Positions 1,412 to 58,049 of a DNA stretch of 64,000 nucleotides are shown in pieces. The notes under the pieces were generated by a model. It ran no database searches and was not told the origin of the DNA. It was given only the letters and a program-made list of their open reading frames with translations. The stretch's first letter is position 1. Every line of letters begins with the position of its first letter. The stretch comes from Bradymonadia bacterium (GTDB lineage: Bacteria > Myxococcota_A > Bradymonadia > UBA7976 > UBA1532), in contig JBKAGE010000072.1 in NCBI GenBank assembly GCA_046290225.1, forward strand, positions 35,764 to 99,763, in the 5' to 3' direction. Position numbers and translations under genes: made by a program.

Positions 1412-2308
1412 ATGTGGGGACCGCCCCAAGGAGGCCCATTGCGCACTCGAAGCCTGCTGACATCTGGCCCGCGTAAGCTCAACCCTCTCGCCCTGTGCGC
1501 CTTGATCCCCAGCCTCGCGATCGCTGATCCGCAGCCGACGCCGAGCCCTGCCGTGCCCTCTGCAGAGGTGCCCCTGGCTCCGGTCCGAGCCTTCACAGCC
1601 CCTGCCGAGCATCCCGAGGCCGGCGAGGGTGAGGCGATCGAGGTGGCCCAGCGCCGTCGCCGCCGTCGTCGCCGCCGCGCGGCCCCTGGAGGCATCGACG
1701 ACTCGGATCTCGCCCGCGAGGAGACCCTCGAAGAGCTCAAAGAGGAAGAGTACGAGAAAGAGGCGTGGTCCGTGGGTACTGCCATCGGCCTGAGCTTCAT
1801 CCCCGGCGGGGGTGCGGGGCTCATCTACGCCGAGAAGCCCGCGGCTTCGACAGTGCCCTACCTGCTCAGCGCCATCGGCTACGGGGTGGGCATCGCCTAC
1901 TTCGTCGGCGCCTTCGACGAGTCGTCGAGCGTGGTGTGCAACCATGACATCGACGGCCGCGTGGCCTTCGAAGAGTGCAGCTTCGGTGATCCCGGCAGCG
2001 CGGTGCGCAACGATCGCGATCCCCGCGGCACCCCCATCAACGGGCAGCAGCCCCCCTACTTCCAGACTCAGGGTCAGTACACCGAGGCCACCATCGGTGA
2101 AGACTTCGACGGCAAGCAGACGGGTCTGATCATCATCGCCGGCACCTACGTGGTGACGACGGTGCTCGGCGCTGTCTGGGCAGCCAGTTCGGTCTCTGAT
2201 CACAACGACGCGGTGCGCAAGAAGATCGACTCCACGGTGCAGGCGCCGAAGCCCATCGTGGCCTACGACGGCCGCCGTGGCTTCCTGGGCCTGTCCTTCG
2301 ACTTTTGA
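1412..2308 (+). CDS. hypothetical secreted/membrane protein with a poly-Arg tract
   Basis: ORF 1331..2308; first ATG at 1412. Signal-like LALCALIPSLAIA. Run QRRRRRRRRRAAPGG followed by an acidic helix and two hydrophobic segments. The antisense ORF 1304..2353 is judged an artefact. Start uncertain. Confidence 0.4.
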   Translation: MWGPPQGGPLRTRSLLTSGPRKLNPLALCALIPSLAIADPQPTPSPAVPSAEVPLAPVRAFTAPAEHPEAGEGEAIEVAQRRRRRRRRRAAPGGIDDSDLAREETLEELKEEEYEKEAWSVGTAIGLSFIPGGGAGLIYAEKPAASTVPYLLSAIGYGVGIAYFVGAFDESSSVVCNHDIDGRVAFEECSFGDPGSAVRNDRDPRGTPINGQQPPYFQTQGQYTEATIGEDFDGKQTGLIIIAGTYVVTTVLGAVWAASSVSDHNDAVRKKIDSTVQAPKPIVAYDGRRGFLGLSFDF

Positions 2309-2741
2309 GCGGACGGCTGTGCTGCGCACCGCCTGTAGCGAACGACCCAGCAAAAGCTTTCGCTTCGCTGCGTCTGTAGCGGACGCCTCGCCTTCGGCGA
2401 AAGCTGTAGCGGACGCTCATTTGCCTCCGGCAAATTCCCTGTAGCTTTTTTGAAGATCACTTTGGGGGCGTTGGCTCATCTACCGCGAACGTTGAGGGTT
2501 TCTGGCGGACCAGTTCCGGCGCAAGTCCAATCTGGGTTGAGAAGCCCAGCAGGTGCACCATAACTCTCTAAAAAGCTACAGCCCAGGCTGCCGGAGGCAG
2601 ACTCGGCGTCCGCTACAGCTCTGCAAGGCGAAGCCGCAGCAGGCGTCCGCTACAGGCGGTGCCAAAGGCACGGCCGTCCGCTACAGACGCAGCGAAGCTG
2701 GGTCGTCCGCTACAGGCAGCCGTCCGCTCACACCAGATACA
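2308..2741. repeat. MITE-like palindromic element built from CTGTAGCGGACG 12-mers
   Basis: Left arm 2308-2460 carries about four copies of CTGTAGCGGACG/CTGTAGCGAACG. Right arm 2570-2741 carries about five copies of the reverse complement CGTCCGCTACAG in mirrored order. Inner inverted pair GTAGCTTTTT/AAAAAGCTAC. Unique ~110 bp core. Lies in the intergenic region upstream of lspA. Confidence 0.6.
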
Positions 2742-24717: not shown

Positions 24718-24855
24718 CTCCGACGCTCCGGCGGCGTCAGCCGTCGTGAGCGCGGCGATTTCACGCACAGCTGCGGCGGGCAAATGCTCGACGCAGCGCT
24801 GCTGCGCCTGCGCTTTCCCCACCACAGCTGCACGCGAACTCACCACGCTCACGAC

Positions 24856-25005
24856 GACTGCCGCCACCTCCGCGTCTCCGCGGGGCACGTGCACAGGTGG
24901 GTTATGGCTTTGTTGGGCTCTTTGGGACTTCTGACTGCCGCCACCTCCGCGCCTCCGCGGGGCACGCGCATGGGTGGGTTATGGCTTTGTTGGATTGGAG
25001 TGGGG
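24856..25005. repeat. ~77-bp direct duplication
   Basis: GACTGCCGCCACCTCCGCG(T/C)CTCCGCGGGGCACG(T/C)GCA...GGTGGGTTATGGCTTTGTTGG occurs twice in tandem, at 24856-24932 and 24933-~25005. Confidence 0.7.
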
Positions 25006-26502
25006 CTGTTGGGGTTGACGGCTTGTTTTGATGGCATATGAGGGTGACTTGCGAGATGTGGTCGGTATGGCTCCCTGCCATTTCAGGGTTATCGTGTCTC
25101 TTACATTTACTCACACCGACAATACATACAAAAAATGCCTTCGATCACTGGCACTTACAAAAAAGTCGACAAAATGTCACATAAGGGCTTGATCACTGCT
25201 GACGAGGTGACTAACAATTCTCTTCGTAGGGTTGAGGTTGGCTCTACGGAACACCACCTCCCTTCAGAAACACCAAACAATTTGCACTGATACTCCTAGG
25301 AGAATTGGCGTGTCTTGTTCTGGTGCATGTGCATGTAACCTGTAGGGTGTTGTGGCTGACTCACATCAACCGTGGCACACATGCAATGCATGTATATTTG
25401 ATGGGATTCGAGCGTACACACACCAAAACTGCAGACCTCGTGTTGGCAAGATGGAGTGAAAGAAACAACCGGCTCTTGGACCAGGACCTCGCGTCTTGTG
25501 CTCAGGTTCATCGTTTCTTGTACGTAGACAGCCTTATTTGCTCAATGACAGGTGCTTGCACCTGTACCCTTCTCAAGGGTGTGGATTGATGCCCTCTGTG
25601 GGGCCGCATTTCAGTCCTTTCGGGGATTGGCTACAGAACTCATCCAATGGGCCATGTAGGCGGTGCTGCTTGGACACAGACAGACCTGAAGGCATGAGCA
25701 GGTAAGTGGTGGATGGTGGATACGATGGTTGGGTTTACCCAGTTGACGTACTGCCAGTCAGGCCTGAGTTCAGGCCATGAGCGCACATGATGGCGAACGC
25801 TCCACATATGTGAGGTGGGTCGCCATGATGGGCATGAGAGCACACATGCATACAGAAACATTCTGCTTTCGGGTGGATGAGTATGTATGCACATATGTCT
25901 CTGACATCGGTTCGCACGTGAGGTCGAAGGTCCCCCTTCAACCAAACTGGCGAGTACATTGATGACAGAGTCGAGGAGAGAACGACACGGAGAGAGGCGT
26001 CTTGGGTCAGAATACGTGCACATAGATGGCGAATAGACATCGTGCGCCCTGACCTTTGCCGAGCGTGTATTGACTCATCTCAGGTTCGACCTGTCGAGTT
26101 TGAGAGTTGAAGCACTCGTCAATGCTGCACATTCGACCCCGAGCAGATGTATTCCATATATCGGTTTGATGGTTCGTGTGGCACTGATGGCTTCAGGGTT
26201 CATCACACTCATTGGCCCGAAGGTGCCTTGTAAAACTGTTTGATTCAGAGACGCGAACGCGTACTGCACGTGCCGGCTTCAAGCCATGCACCTGTGCCCA
26301 CCTTTCGGGGTGCGGTGTGGGGCGACGGTGAGGGCAGGTATGGTCTGGCGTCGATGTCTGGCTCTTCACGGAGAAAGGCAGCGGCGGTCACCCATGACCA
26401 GCAGCATGCATTCAGGCGCTTTGGAGAGGTTTTACGAGGATGTAAGGTCAGAGAGCTGTGGTGCCAGGCGACTGGGGTTGCCACACGAGACGGTCGTGAT
26501 GC

Positions 26503-26590
26503 GAGACAGAAACACCTCGAGACAGAAACACCTCGAGACAGAAACACCTCGAGACAGAAACACCTCGAGACAGAAACACCCTGAGACAGG
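26503..26590. repeat. tandem repeat, 16-bp unit x ~5.5
   Basis: GAGACAGAAACACCTC repeated contiguously. No unique spacers, so it is not CRISPR-like. Confidence 0.9.
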
Positions 26591-26663
26591 AGCACCGCGG
26601 GACAGTCAGCTGAAGGGCTTGCCTTGATGATGACAGTTTCGACACAGCCCCTGCCTTGAGAGA

Positions 26664-26745
26664 GTGACTGCCTCGAAAAAGTGACTGCCTCGAAAAAGTG
26701 ACTGCCTCAAAAAAGTGACTGCCTCAAAAAAGTGACTGCCTTGAG
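26664..26745. repeat. tandem repeat, 17-bp unit x ~4.5
   Basis: GTGACTGCCTC(G/A)AAAAA repeated. Flanked on both sides by GCCTTGAGAGAG(T/C)GACTG. Confidence 0.9.
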
Positions 26746-27515
26746 AGAGCGACTGACCCTCGAGTGTGCAATTGACTGAGACATGACACATTCGGAATGC
26801 ACGATCAGCGACGACAGGCAACCTTGCCAGGCACATCGTCAGATGTGCACCCAAGCCCAGTCGAGGCCGAGCGCACTGCAGCAATGCAGCGCCATCAGTC
26901 GCCCCTGAGCGAGAGTGTACGACTGATGTCTGGTGACAGTCCGGAGCCGCTGATAGCAGAGACGGCGTGAAAGCGCTGTTCAGCTGGCCCCTCCTCGGAG
27001 GTGACCAGTCTTCTGTCACGGAGCCGGCGCGGTGGCCTTCCCTTTCAGGGCCGGCCGCTGAAACGGTGCCTGCGCAGAGTGCGACGTTTCTCGAAGACCA
27101 CGCGACGGCGTGGGCAACTCGACGGACAGACGACCCGAGGCTTCGGTTTTGGGCAGACGGTCTAGAGAGCGCCTCGCCATACACATACAGCCCTGCTTTC
27201 GGGTGTGGCGGTGTGTTGTGCTGGTCGACATTCAGAACGCTGAGGCGTGTTTGCAGGGTACCATGCGGCACACTTTGGCAACTCTGACGTGACTGTTCTT
27301 CTGCACTGTACTTTCACGGGGCGCCTTCGGGCCTCTGTAGGGTGCGGTGCCTTCGAGTGCTCATCCTGAGAATGGGTGTGTTTGCCTTTGGGCCAGATGC
27401 ATCGATTCGAGGGCCTGCCAGCGTTGATGGCTCTCTCTGGTTTGATGTTCCGCCAACCTCAGCCCGTTTTTTCTTTCTCTACCCCCCTTTGCCTTTGCGT
27501 GTCGCTTGAGCCATC

Positions 27516-40310: not shown

Positions 40311-40848
40311 ATTGGGCAGTGATGTAGGCTGTGGCTGAGTCCTGGTAGGCAGTCATCGCTGCGCTCTGCCTGCGTAGGCAGCTGCCGACGGCCGGCCTTC
40401 GGCCCGCCTTGTAGCTGCGTACACGTCGGCACGCTCGCTGGCGCGAGCAGGCCTCCGGGTAGGCAGGGTCGCTCAATGCTGACGCATTGTTTGCTCGCTC
40501 CCCTGCGTAAAAAGTCAGTTCTGGTGTGACTTTGCACAGATTCTGGCGCTGTTGGGGCTTTCGCCGAGCCTTGGGGCTCAGAGGCTTGCACGTTCGCGGC
40601 AGGTCGAATCACGGCAGGCATCAGCAACAAGATACAGACGAAACTCTTTACGCAGGGGAGTGAGCGAATAAGGCGAAGCCTTGAGCGACCCTGCCTACCC
40701 GGAGGGGTTCCGCGAAGCGGATGCCCGAACGTGTACGCGCCAGACAAGGCGGTCCGCAGGACTGCCGAAGGCCCAGCGCCTACGCAGGCAGAGCGCAGCG
40801 ATGACTGCCTACCAGGACTCAGCCACAGCTTACGTCACTGCCCAATTC
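40311..40848. repeat. MITE-like long-hairpin repeat element, copy A
   Basis: Terminal inverted repeats ATTGGGCAGTGATGTAGGCTGTGGCTGAGTCCTGGTAGGCAGTCATCGCTGCGCTCTGCCTGCGTAGGC... and its reverse complement at 40780-40848. The arms remain largely complementary toward the centre. ~85% identical to the copy at 57081-57554. Confidence 0.75.
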
Positions 40849-40865: not shown

Positions 40866-41645
40866 CTATTCCATCAGCTCACCATGAACCGCCCAGACCT
40901 GAGCACGCCGTAGCTCGCTCGGCGTCAGCACCACAGAGGCCGGATCAGCCTGCCAACGGGTGAACTTCTCCCGCCAGCGCACTCGATCCGCCTCCAGAGC
41001 TTTGAGCCTGACCTCTGCCGCGGCATCTCGCTGTGACGCCAGCTGCATGCCGAGGCTCTGCGTCTGACCCGGCGGCAACCACACCGCCACGAGCTCTTTC
41101 ACCGCCGCTCGACGATCCAGCGGATCTGCCCCCACACGATCCAGCACCTGGCGGATCTCCACCGAGCGCGCCAGGGACTCCAGCTGGATGTTCACCATGT
41201 TCGCCGGCATCGTGCCCAGCTCGGCGAGCAAGCCGCCATGAGCCTTCTGCACCTCTTCCCACGTGGGCGGCTCCGGGGCGCCGTGCCAGCGGGACAGCGC
41301 CTCAGCCACCCCCTGGCGATAGGTGAGATAACGGGTGAAGATCGACGCCGCCTCCTCCGCGGCCTCGGGCGGCACCATCGTCAGGGCCAGCTGCTCCACT
41401 TTGTCCGCGAGGGCCTCCGGGCCAGCCTCTCCTTCCGCCGTGAGCACATAGTCGAAGAGTGTGTAGAGCTCCTCGTCGATGCGCAGCCGGCCGTGATCGT
41501 CCAGAGTGAGCTGACCGTCCGGGGTCGTACCTGCCAGGGCTTGCAGCGTCTCCTTTGCCGGCGCCTCGGCGCTCTCGAGCTGACCGTCAGCGCACCCGGC
41601 GAGGGCCACGCAGATCATCATGGGCTTCATCATACGTGTCATCAC
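40866..41645 (-). CDS. lipase-specific foldase (Lif/LipB-like chaperone), lipoprotein-anchored
   Basis: Immediately downstream of, and overlapping by ATGA, a family I lipase gene. Helical Ala/Glu/Leu-rich ~260 aa protein with lipobox VALAGC. Gene order lipA-lif as in Pseudomonas/Burkholderia. Confidence 0.6.
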   Translation of the reverse strand: MMTRMMKPMMICVALAGCADGQLESAEAPAKETLQALAGTTPDGQLTLDDHGRLRIDEELYTLFDYVLTAEGEAGPEALADKVEQLALTMVPPEAAEEAASIFTRYLTYRQGVAEALSRWHGAPEPPTWEEVQKAHGGLLAELGTMPANMVNIQLESLARSVEIRQVLDRVGADPLDRRAAVKELVAVWLPPGQTQSLGMQLASQRDAAAEVRLKALEADRVRWREKFTRWQADPASVVLTPSELRRAQVWAVHGELME

Positions 41646-46495: not shown

Positions 46496-46523
46496 CTCTC
46501 TGTTGGGGGGCGCTCCGCGGGCA

Positions 46524-46790
46524 AGAGAGTTTTTCGGGCACGGGCACGGGCACGGGCACGGGCACGAGTTTTACGGATGTGGACAGTGCAGCCTGAGGCT
46601 GCATGTCTTGGAGCGAGTGGAGGTCGGCGTAGCTGGCCGGAGGGAGCGGAAAGACACCCGGAGGGCTGTCCACTGTTTGGCCTGACAGTGCAGCCTGAGG
46701 CTGCATGTCTTGGAGCGAGTGTAGGCCTGCGTAGCTGGCCGGAGGGAGCGGAAAGACACCCGTAGGGCTGGCCACTGTTCGACCTTGGAC
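46524..46790. repeat. left inverted-repeat arm flanking four-helix-bundle gene
   Basis: Contains (CACGGG)5 and two tandem ~87-bp subunits, each with the hairpin TGCAGCC-TGA-GGCTGCA. Near-perfect reverse complement of 47298-47580. Confidence 0.85.
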
Positions 46791-46830
46791 TCGTGACCCA
46801 GTGAGGGGTCAAAGCTGTATGTTGGGTTGA

Positions 46831-47184
46831 CTATGAGGCTCGACTGGCCATCTTGATGAGCATGGCCACGACATCTACGAGCAGTGATTTGCCATCTTGT
46901 GCCCGCTCAGCTCGGCCAAGCCGAAGCATATGCAGACAATCCAAGACCGCAGCACACTCCGTAGCCGATCTCTTGGCCATCCGATAAAAACGACTCTTCT
47001 CAGCCTTTGAGAACTCGCCAGCTCCTTCCGCAATGTTCAGCACTACAGACAAAGACGCACGTCTCAATTGATCTGAGAGATACGCCCTTCCTGTAGGCAG
47101 TTGACGACAGAGTTCATCAGACAACACCAAAAACTCGAGCGACTTGCGGTAGACATCCAACCTCTCGTGATCAAGACAGCTCAT
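46831..47184 (-). CDS. four-helix-bundle protein (23S rRNA intervening-sequence protein family, TIGR02436/PF05635)
   Basis: ATG at 47184 preceded by GGAGG. 117 aa. LDVYRKSLEF...SDQLRRASLSVVLNIAEGAGEFSKAEKSRFYRMAKRSATE matches the family consensus (QL.RAA.S...NIAEG.G). Lower GC than surroundings. Confidence 0.7.
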   Translation of the reverse strand: MSCLDHERLDVYRKSLEFLVLSDELCRQLPTGRAYLSDQLRRASLSVVLNIAEGAGEFSKAEKSRFYRMAKRSATECAAVLDCLHMLRLGRAERAQDGKSLLVDVVAMLIKMASRAS

Positions 47185-47297
47185 ATGACCTCCAATGCTG
47201 GTTCTCATTGGGTCTACATCCGAGGGTGCTGATGCCTTCCACCAAAATTGACCCATACCAAGGATCGCCCCCCCTCATCACGCACAGGTTTGACCCC

Positions 47298-47580
47298 TCA
47301 CCGGGCCATGGGTCCAGGGTCGAACAGTGGCCAGCCCTCCGGGTGTCTTTCCGCTCCCTCCGGCCAGCTACGCAGGCCTAAACTCGCTCCAAGACATGCA
47401 GCCTCAGGCTGCACTGTCAGGCCAAACAGTGGACAGCCCTCCGGGTGTCTTTCCGCTCCCTCCGGCCGGCTACGCCGCCCTCCACTCGCTCCAAGACATG
47501 CAGCCTCAGGCTGCACTGTCCACACCCGTAAAACTCGTGCCCGTGCCCGTGCCCGTGCCCGTGCCCGAAAACTCTCTCAC
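47298..47580. repeat. right inverted-repeat arm flanking four-helix-bundle gene
   Basis: Reverse complement of 46524-46790, including (CCCGTG)5. Confidence 0.85.
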
Positions 47581-47721
47581 CCGCGGAGCGCCCCCCAAAG
47601 AACCAAAACCTCTCACCTCCCCCTTCCTGCGATATAATCCCCACCCATTGAGCCAGTCTGCCCCTCAATCCCGTACCGAGGCACGGGTTGTGGCGACGGC
47701 GAACACGCAGGGAGACACTGC

Positions 47722-56871: not shown

Positions 56872-56956
56872 GCGAAGGTGGCGGAATTGGTAGACGCGCT
56901 AGGTTGAGGGCCTAGTGTCCGCTTAGGACGTGGGGGTTCGACTCCCCCCCTTCGCA
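56872..56956 (+). tRNA. tRNA-Leu (anticodon GAG)
   Basis: Class II tRNA, 85 nt. Sequence GCGAAGG TG GCGG AATTGGTAGA CGCG C TAGG TTGAGGG CCTAG T GTCCGCTTAGGAC GT GGGGG TTCGACT CCCCC CCTTCGC A. Near-identical D arm, T arm and acceptor to E. coli tRNA-Leu. CCA not encoded. Confidence 0.85.
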
Positions 56957-56963
56957 CTCCTGA

Positions 56964-57000
56964 AACGGGGTTGGGCTCAGGCTCAACCCCGTTTTTTATT
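56964..57000 (+). terminator. intrinsic terminator after tRNA-Leu
   Basis: Perfect 10-bp stem AACGGGGTTG...CAACCCCGTT with a 10-nt loop, followed by TTTTTTATTT. Confidence 0.6.
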
Positions 57001-57080
57001 TCGAACCTTGGAATTGCCTTGGACGACAACTCGCCTGCCCGATGACGTCCACTTGTGATTGAAGATTGCTGCTGAGCCTT

Positions 57081-57554
57081 TGTAGGCTGTCATCGCTGCG
57101 CTCTGCCTGCGTAGGCACCCGGTCTTCGGCAACCCTTCGGGCCGCCTCGTCGGTCGCGTACACGTCGGCGGGCTCGCTGTCGCGAGCAGGCCTCCGGGTA
57201 GGCAGGGTCGCTCAATGCTGACGCATTGATTGCTCGCTCCCCTGCGTAAAAAGTCAGTTCTGGTGTGGCTTTGGGGGTACTTTCAACGCTATTGGGGCTT
57301 ACGCCGAACGTTTGATGTTCAGAAGCTTGTACGTTCGCGGCAGGTCGAGTGCCGGCAGACATCAGCAACAAGATACAGAAGAAGCTCTTTACGCAGGGGA
57401 GCGAGCGAATAAGGCGAAGCCTTGAGCGACCCTGCTTACCCGGAGGCCTGCTCGCTTCAGCGAGCGTGGCGACGTGTACGCAGCTCCAAGGCGGGCCGAA
57501 GGCCGGCCGTCGGCAGCTGCCTACGCAGGCGGAGCGCAGCGACGACTGCCTACA
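57081..57554. repeat. MITE-like long-hairpin repeat element, copy B
   Basis: Same family as 40311-40848 (GTAGGCTGTCATCGCTGCGCTCTGCCTGCGTAGGC... and its reverse complement). Shorter variant lacking ~20 bp at each end. Lies between the tRNA-Leu terminator and the secG 3' end. Confidence 0.75.
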
Positions 57555-57662
57555 AGGGCCCATCGCACAGGCTCGACCTCAGCTCTCGTATGGAGGTCAG
57601 CACCAGAGACAAACACCTATGGCCCAAGCGCTATACATGAAGATTTTTGGAAGAGCCCAATA

Positions 57663-58048
57663 TCAGGGCTTGGGTGCCTCAGCAGGCTTCTCGGCGGGCT
57701 TCTCAGCGGCCTTCTCCGCCTCAGCAGCAGCCTTGATCGCCTCGTCGGCGGCCTTCTGCTCCTTCTCCTTGTCCGCCTGAGCCTGCTTCTCTGCGGCGGC
57801 CTTGATGGCGTCGTCCACAGGGGGCGTGGAGAGCTTGGCCAGAGTCATGCTGGTGGTCATGAAGAGCACCGCGCAACCCACGGTGATCTTGCCGAGCACC
57901 GTGGCCGCAGCCCGCTGACCGAGGGCAGCGCCAGCGCCACCACCGAAGGCGGCGCTCACGCCGCCGCCCTTACCAGCCTGCAACAACACCACCAGGATGA
58001 TGAAAATCGAAACAATGATGTGCAGAACCGTGACGATGGATTCAAACA

Positions 58049-58049
<1 letters not shown>
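57663..58049 (-). CDS. secG: preprotein translocase subunit SecG
   Basis: MFESIVTVLHIIVSIFIILVVLLQAGKGGG... then a second TM helix and a Lys/Ala/Glu-rich tail. Last gene of the gap-pgk-tpiA-secG cluster. Confidence 0.85.

Follow-up and report, generated by a model that had tools for sequence, protein, structure and literature searches.

Large palindromic elements built of GTAG-box hairpin modules in a Bradymonadia genome: a putative REP/BIME/REPIN-like repeat family

The stretch of DNA analysed here, referred to as the window, comprises 64,000 nucleotides from the metagenome-assembled genome of an uncultured Bradymonadia bacterium (GenBank assembly GCA_046290225.1, contig JBKAGE010000072.1, positions 35,764 to 99,763 of the forward strand). 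The Bradymonadia are Myxococcota-related predators. The window includes two copies, A and B, of a palindromic element of about 500 bp, a further element, C, that is built in the same way, and a possibly related palindrome of 1.1 kb, D, that encloses a gene (Table 1). The outer part of a fourth element, E, is visible ~6.2 kb past the right end of the window in a Logan contig (L090, sample SRR22269038) that extends the window rightwards. Element A lies between co-directional genes, 18 nt past the stop codon of a gene for a 259-aa protein and 137 nt upstream of Met 40173 of the alpha-2-macroglobulin (A2M) gene. Element C is likewise located between co-directional genes, and its left end overlaps the TGA stop codon of the gene at 1331-2308. 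Element B is found between convergent genes, tRNA-Leu(GAG) and secG, as an earlier note on this DNA had placed it, and E lies 3-6 nt after the stop codon of an NYN-domain gene. All four elements are therefore just past a stop codon, at distances from overlap to 85 nt (A, C and E at 0-18 nt, B at 85 nt). In A and C, and in E as judged from its arm type, the core of the element is antisense to the stop-side gene. The same is true of B with respect to secG, which is the closer of the two convergent genes beside it; the sample of elements is too small for this tally to be weighed.

Table 1. Positions of the palindromic elements, their parts, neighbouring genes and PF05635 homologue loci. Coordinates are those of the window, except for loci with an L number, which are Logan or metagenome contigs. 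For elements, + denotes the orientation of the core, a convention applied to all of them.
Feature	Position	Strand	Basis or remarks
Element A (type 1), entire palindrome	40310..40847	+	Nested inverted repeats; RNA and DNA folds; 87% identity to B
A left arm	40310..40515	+	GTAG-type boxes at 40324, 40345, 40374, 40411 and 40459; GTAA at 40507; local hairpins GGCC-TTC-GGCC, GCTCGC-TGGC-GCGAGC and CAATGC-TGAC-GCATTG
A core (asymmetric loop), 127 nt	40516..40642	+	GTCAGTTCTGGTG at 40514-40526; ACGTTCGCGGCAG at 40590-40602; AGGCATCAGCA at 40616-40626
A right arm	40643..40847	-	Inverted counterpart of A left arm; hairpins at equivalent positions differ: GTCC-TGC-GGAC, TCCGC-TTC-GCGGA and AAGGC-TTC-GCCTT
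Element B (type 1)	57060..57577 (approx.)	+	Inverted-repeat layers; homology to A; fold
B arms	57060-57254 and 57384-57577		Outermost layer degenerate
B core	57255-57383
Element C (type 2)	2306..2729	-	Whole-window repeat scan; RNA fold z -13.0
C core	~2451-2569		Oriented opposite to the cores of A and B
C arms			Full CTGTAGCGGACG boxes, 3 (left) and 4 (right), plus innermost partial CTGTAGC box
Element E (type 2), outer 58 nt visible	L090 1-58
Element D, possibly related 1.1-kb palindrome	46503..47598	-	288-nt arms, 96% complementary
23S_rRNA_IVP four-helix-bundle gene (PF05635), inside D	47184-46834		Pfam E = 3e-21
A2M gene	35230..40173	-	Start Met 40173, lipoprotein signal peptide next
Gene for 259-aa protein	40866..41645	-	Stop 18 nt from right end of A
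tRNA-Leu(GAG)	56872-56957	+	With terminator-like hairpin spans 56872..56995, 65-100 nt left of B
secG	57663..58049	-	Stop (57663) 85 nt from right end of B
PF05635 homologue locus L086	2449-2887
PF05635 homologue locus L087	~1360-1400
PF05635 homologue locus L088	2301-3117
PF05635 homologue locus L091	~1380-2000
PF05635 homologue locus L092	~1854-1883

The earlier note had reported A and B as two palindromic copies, and this was confirmed. The mean column identity of A and B is 87% over ~500 aligned nt, and ~200-nt arms surround an asymmetric core of ~127 nt. The strings that the note had quoted from them are exact at their sites and have no other occurrence in the window. The outermost inverted repeat of A (40310-40379 / 40778-40847) is 70 nt long and 97% complementary, and the innermost of its nested repeats is formed by 40483-40515 / 40643-40675. 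The arm repeats of B are 57073-57117 / 57518-57562, 57156-57219 / 57418-57481 and 57222-57262 / 57376-57416, and the element reaches its full extent via degenerate homology to the outer layer of A. The RNA folding suggested in the note gave giant hairpins far outside chance, at -382 kcal/mol (z -22.7) for A and -337 kcal/mol (z -18.2) for B, and the DNA fold of A has a z of -26.4. The core-sense strand of A, B and C has a fold that is more stable than that of the other strand by 10-19 kcal/mol, with more G-U pairs.

The arms are not the simple terminal inverted repeats described in the note, but arrays of head-to-tail modules. Every element has a pair of inverted arms, each about 140-205 nt long, and an arm consists of 4-6 modules of 37-53 nt, in which a GTAG-type box is followed by a short GC-rich hairpin, frequently with a TTCG or TCCG loop. 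The GTAG ends of the boxes point outwards. The type 1 box of A and B is YG(C/G)GTAGGCAG and adjoins a bulged stem, e.g. GTAG-GCAGGG...CCCTGC, while the type 2 box of C and E is CTGTAGCGGACG. There are nine matches to GTAGGCAG in the window versus 1.3 expected, eight of them within A or B, and eight matches to CTGTAGCGGACG versus 0.4 expected, seven of them within C. The related boxes GTAGGCTG, GTAGCTGC, GCGTACAC and GCGTAAAA are found between the GTAGGCAG boxes of A and B, and the spacers among boxes are also complementary between arms.

When every arm was folded alone, different hairpins were obtained at equivalent positions: GGCC-TTC-GGCC, GTCC-TGC-GGAC or CCC-TTC-GGG at the first arm position, GCTCGC-NNNN-GCGAGC or TCCGC-TTC-GCGGA at the second, and CAATGC-TGAC-GCATTG or AAGGC-TTC-GCCTT at the third. 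Type 2 hairpins vary likewise (GCC-TTCG-GGC, TTTGCC-TCCG-GGCAAA and others). As judged by identity between A and B, the box modules are the best conserved part (94-98%), the inner modules being collinear and 95-98% identical, and the core is 79.5% identical overall, with 72% in its 5' half and 91% in its 3' half. The middle module of the left arm of A matches that of the right arm of B at 94%, while other arm pairings give 65-77%, and A and B are therefore a mosaic rather than simply diverged copies. The elements are mosaics of interchangeable modules, in which the boxes are near-invariant and the hairpin bodies have been exchanged from arm to arm and from copy to copy. Plain inversion of the inner segment in one copy relative to the other was rejected, as just one of the two arm matches that it predicts was observed: A-left and B-right agree at 94% but A-right and B-left at 72%.

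The arms of C show no sequence relationship to the A and B arms, and C shares with A and B only the core motifs, AGTTNTGGTG-N73-75-ACGTTCGCGGYAG, which it carries on the opposite strand. All three occurrences of ACGTTCGCGG in the window are inside the loops of A, B and C, where it sits 73-75 nt downstream of AGTTNTGGTG, and this gapped pattern has three matches versus 0.00 expected. Global alignment of the cores, compared with 1000 shuffles, gave z values of 6.8 for B/C and 3.4 for A/C in a single orientation only, and an unsupervised nhmmer search with C as the query found the core of B with an E value of 0.03. The string that the earlier note had taken for a conserved core lies at the arm/loop junction; what both arm types share is the asymmetric loop. 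No open reading frame (ORF) common to A/B and C was found in the cores, and a conserved RNA fold of the core was not supported, the covariation term for the three sequences being positive, i.e. unfavourable. A core-encoded peptide was rejected as a candidate: in the A/B frame only one of 10 substitutions is synonymous, and C has a stop codon there.

The visible part of E, which is limited by the end of the contig, matches the outer arm of C in every box but differs from it in the small hairpin. The type 2 elements start with TGAGCGGACGG (window 2306-2308; L090 ~50-64). In C, the TGA of TGAGCGGACGG is the stop codon of the upstream gene, and hence the end of this ORF may have been provided or substituted by the element. 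Thus, ~70 kb of sequence carries two type 1 elements (A and B) and two type 2 elements (C and E). The note had allowed that only two copies might exist, as a local segmental duplication; C, by its core motifs, and E contradict this. Because C and E exist with other arms and the same architecture, A, B, C and E are a multi-copy family and not a local duplication.

Coding capacity, known RNA families and signs of mobility were searched for. The longest ORFs spanning A and B had no Pfam match, and a 157-aa ORF spanning B had no match in either a library of 5.8 billion proteins or a representative library of 1.84 billion. In Rfam, tRNA-Leu was the sole match at the gathering score, the best sub-threshold matches had E values of about 1-10, and the elements were without a match even at E <= 10. 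Neither sigma-70-like promoters nor intrinsic terminators were found inside A or B, and terminator-like sites were present only outside B, beside the tRNA-Leu gene. The earlier note had proposed looking for target-site duplications and for a cognate transposase. No direct repeat of 2-10 bp, nor a duplication of any other length, flanks A, B or C, and no IS630/Tc1, TnpB, RAYT, DDE or other transposase is encoded in the window or in the additional ~6 kb.

Relatives were sought in public collections. The exact 21-mer of the arm/loop junction has no match in the GTDB representative genomes, where the gapped core pattern gave one chance match in a Burkholderia coding region. The core pattern minus YAG gave 78 matches in JGI metagenomes, all of them attributable to chance, with no blastn similarity and no flanking inverted repeat of >13 nt. 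In IMG/VR, there were four matches to the core pattern (uninspected), one match of the box pair to a coding tandem repeat, and none to the type 1 box. No match was obtained by blastn of A, C and D against plasmids or of A against phages. Because no relatives were found in these collections, or in Rfam and, as spurious ORFs, in the protein libraries, the description of the family as widespread is unsupported, and on present data the family is lineage-restricted.

The features of A, B, C and E were compared with those of known non-autonomous repeats. The unit that defines the GTAG-REP (repetitive extragenic palindromic) super-family is a palindrome of 20-40 bp, one end of which carries an unpaired GTAG (or degenerate GYAG/GTRG), and members of the super-family are dispersed in high copy number and extragenic, mostly downstream of ORFs of co-directional or convergent genes (Di Nocera et al. 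2013, PMC3733652). In that literature, mobilisation of REP-type repeats in trans is ascribed to HUH tyrosine transposases of the REP-associated (RAYT) type, the genes for which are flanked by the same repeats (PMC3733652). Like GTAG-REPs and bacterial interspersed mosaic elements (BIMEs), the elements studied here have an outer GTAG-type tag on stem-loop modules, outward-facing inverted pairs, clustering into larger foldable structures, G-T pairs and alternative complementary stem residues between units (PMC3733652). They also resemble them in lacking coding capacity and end duplications and in their location downstream of ORFs, which are co-directional for A and C and convergent for B. Their arms hold 4-6 GTAG/GTAA boxes each. 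Unlike GTAG-REPs and BIMEs, they have about five modules nested symmetrically on each side of a conserved asymmetric ~125-nt loop, which two box types share, and the modules exceed the 20-40 bp by which the unit is defined. The REPIN, in which the whole hairpin appears to be the copied unit, similarly has two inverted REP-bearing arms and a spacer, forms a single hairpin and is non-autonomous (PMC3116915, PMC3337134). However, a REPIN is ~100 nt long, its spacer is short and each of its arms has a single REP, whereas the elements are 4-5 times larger (420-540 bp), multi-modular and mosaic. Palindrome-associated transposable elements (PATEs) derived from IS200/IS605 differ in having different subterminal hairpins and no terminal inverted repeats, whereas A, B, C and E have long inverted-repeat ends; PATEs insert 3' of a fixed tetra- or pentanucleotide, and no left-flank oligonucleotide is common to the four elements.

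The mosaic organisation of GTAG boxes and hairpin modules points towards the REP/BIME type rather than a classical MITE (miniature inverted-repeat transposable element). With moderate confidence, A, B, C and E are interpreted as unusually large, multi-module, lineage-restricted REP/BIME/REPIN-like non-autonomous repeats that would be copied in trans. The family is real and structurally elaborate and, under this putative REP assignment, is a new form within the REP/BIME/REPIN type. Copying would involve an enzyme that acts on single-strand DNA and recognises the GTAG and hairpin modules. The most likely candidate would be a HUH tyrosine transposase of the RAYT/IS200 type encoded elsewhere in the genome, the RAYT type being a guess, and the HUH/Y1 transposase gene would carry flanking GTAGGCAG or GTAGCGGACG boxes. 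As the elements lie immediately 3' of genes, they are probably co-transcribed with the upstream gene. The ~200-bp stem could then form a barrier or a target for a double-strand RNase at the end of the upstream message, while leaving the downstream promoter intact; a role of the hairpin as a transcript barrier is plausible from its position.

Several points weigh against the REP-like assignment. Classical REPs are 20-40 bp and REPINs ~100 bp long, and both the modules and the whole elements are larger. In type 2 modules, the hairpin is ~10 nt off the box and its stem does not directly follow GTAG. A conserved ~125-nt loop that is common to two arm types is not known from REPs or BIMEs and is unexplained by the model. 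No free-standing box units were found elsewhere in the 64 kb, and no RAYT gene was found in the region covered. With relatives absent from all public collections searched, the assignment has no comparative support, and neither an empty site nor a polymorphic insertion was seen that would document movement of the elements.

The arms of element D hold inverted (CGGGCA)5 / (CGTGCC)5 runs, and GTCANTTNTGGTG and AGGCATCAGCA are found upstream of its IVP gene in the same order and orientation as in A. Comparison of the D loop with the A, B and C cores by Smith-Waterman alignment and nhmmer gave no significant result. D is laid out like the intervening sequences of 23S rRNA, which are excised by RNase III (PMC4990558). 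In all five PF05635 homologue loci inspected, which come from unrelated metagenomes with 39-71% GC, a (GGGCAN)n run fitting a G-quadruplex motif lies 3-20 nt after the PF05635 gene. At least three of the five loci (L086, L088 and L091) also have a complementary run ahead of the gene, and a partial run is present in L092. The IVP gene of D is flipped relative to the arrangement in these loci. Most of the 2697 PF05635 homologues are on contigs of 0.5-3 kb. A literature search on PF05635/IVP terms listed no paper on flanking (GGGCAN)n runs.

Other origins of the family have to be weighed against REP-like repeats. A classical MITE would be an internally deleted DDE transposon with several transposase-binding sites per end, moved by cut-and-paste by a full-length relative. 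The ends of Tn7, Mu and Tn402-like elements carry several such sites, and Correia, ERIC and Nezha-type elements are examples of MITEs. The iterated 8-12-nt boxes with a spacing of ~30-50 nt per end and the outermost box at the tip would fit such an origin, as would the type 2 tips, TGTGAGCGGACGG...CCGTCCGCTCACA, which have a terminus of the TG...CA type and resemble the Tn7 tip TGTGGGCGGACA. The elements further share with MITEs a size of less than 600 bp (420-540 bp), the lack of coding sequence, inverted ends, intergenic location and multiple copies. However, the inverted repeat makes up ~75% of the element instead of 20-40 bp, the arms contain iterated boxes, and target-site duplications are missing despite the inverted termini. 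Complementarity of the inter-box spacers between the arms would be needless for arrays of binding sites, and the compensatory differences in the local hairpins point to recognition of a single strand. As no DDE transposase was found nearby either, a MITE is considered unlikely. A local segmental duplication without any family is extremely improbable. A and B are 16.7 kb apart on one contig, and no copy was found in the public collections searched, which would fit such a duplication, but their flanks are unrelated outside the element, their modules are mosaic and not simply diverged, and C, with the core motifs, and E have the same architecture with different arms.

The elements could alternatively be structured or cis-acting RNAs of the rRNA intervening-sequence type, with a long stem that RNase III cleaves, or with a small RNA expressed from a promoter in the core, and with copies made by duplication or recombination. 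Their location directly after stop codons, the common UNCG-type loops, and the better folding and additional G-U pairs of one strand (core-sense in A, B and C, gene-sense in D) would all agree with this. D moreover has the layout of a stem and an IVP gene seen in 23S rRNA intervening sequences, and includes the two motifs of the A core. Intervening sequences with or without an S23p/IVP ORF also have complementary termini that form a long stem around a loop (PMC4990558), but A, B and C lie outside rRNA, have no ORF and have stems of ~200 bp versus ~28 bp; no rRNA is present in the window, and the elements follow protein-coding genes. Since, in addition, Rfam matches and promoter-like or terminator-like sites are lacking, the covariation term of the consensus core fold is unfavourable, the excess of G:T over A:C in the arms (26 to 17) is not significant, and the core is the least conserved part of the type 1 elements, an RNA element is also judged to be unlikely. 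A derivation of A, B and C from a D-type IVP cassette by loss of the gene, with movement by whatever moves the cassettes, would account for the occurrence of GTCANTTNTGGTG in the window only at A, B and D (0.01 expected) and of exact AGGCATCAGCA only at A and D, both at the edge of the D loop upstream of the IVP gene. The arms of D include GCGTAG boxes, and D, too, lies just after a stop codon, beginning 7 nt past it. But the two motifs, which were spotted post hoc, lie side by side in D and are separated by 89 nt in A, no significant alignment extends beyond them, and A, B and C lack the hexamer runs that IVP cassettes typically have, which leaves this derivation quite improbable. A more speculative proposal, which we regard as rather improbable, is that the asymmetric ~125-nt loop is the functional heart of an undescribed class of elements. 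It would be related to the upstream region of palindromic IVP cassettes and transcribed from its own strand, with GTAG-hairpin arrays of differing specificity built around it, and might be, e.g., a small RNA or a recognition module for a mobilising or processing enzyme. If true, a single system would comprise REP-like repeats, stems of the intervening-sequence type and IVP cassettes.

Nearly all work on REP/REPIN-type repeats has dealt with Proteobacteria, and a Bradymonadia family with ~500-bp palindromes would widen both the host range and the range of forms. A loop that is common to two box types goes beyond the REPIN model and could signal that the element itself has a function. At a density of about one element per 15-20 kb, the genome could hold hundreds of copies if the window is typical of it, by extrapolation only.

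The ends of Logan contigs coincide with several of the palindromes. Contig L002 ends inside the right arm of A (~40803) and the hexamer run of D (~46543), and an end of L090 falls inside the right arm of B (window ~57533). The palindromes appear to fragment de Bruijn-graph assemblies of the Bradymonadia genome. Such breaks do not prove that an element is present in multiple copies, because the graph is also broken by an inverted repeat that exceeds k but occurs only once. The coincidence of elements and contig ends (L002, L090) matters for the assembly of metagenome-assembled genomes and for annotation in this lineage.

The elements also produce misleading long ORFs, of which the A2M gene is an example. 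The longest ORF at this gene, 35230-40476 (-), starts at TTG 40476 within the left arm of A and extends 101 codons beyond Met 40173. The earlier note had correctly seen this extension into copy A, but its inference that the annotated 5' end was displaced does not hold for the public annotation: GenBank MFN3201501.1 is the 1647-aa form of A2M that already starts at Met 40173, and the 101-codon extension is therefore only a longest-ORF artefact. The Pfam domains of A2M start at residue 281, numbered from Met 40173. Between A and the A2M gene, 49 nt upstream of Met 40173, the sequence CTGGCAC-TGACC-CTGCAT (40222-40239, -) closely resembles the sigma-54 -24/-12 consensus, TGGCAC-N5-TTGCA. This site supports the short A2M start and suggests that A2M may be controlled by sigma-54.

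On the other side of A, the 259-aa protein had been labelled a foldase, for which no support was found. It has no Pfam match and, among 5.8 billion proteins, no homologue but itself, and the sole contextual hint to its role is the adjoining alpha/beta-hydrolase gene. Judging by this homologue-less protein, this lineage appears to be very poorly sampled.

Elsewhere in the window, a stretch of ~2 kb (~24850-26800) without a long ORF has a GC content of 0.58, compared with ~0.65. It includes a 61-nt direct repeat at 24856/24933, six 16-nt tandem units of CGAGACAGAAACACCT at 26486-26613 and six 17-nt units of TGACTGCCTCGAAAAAG at 26631-26766.

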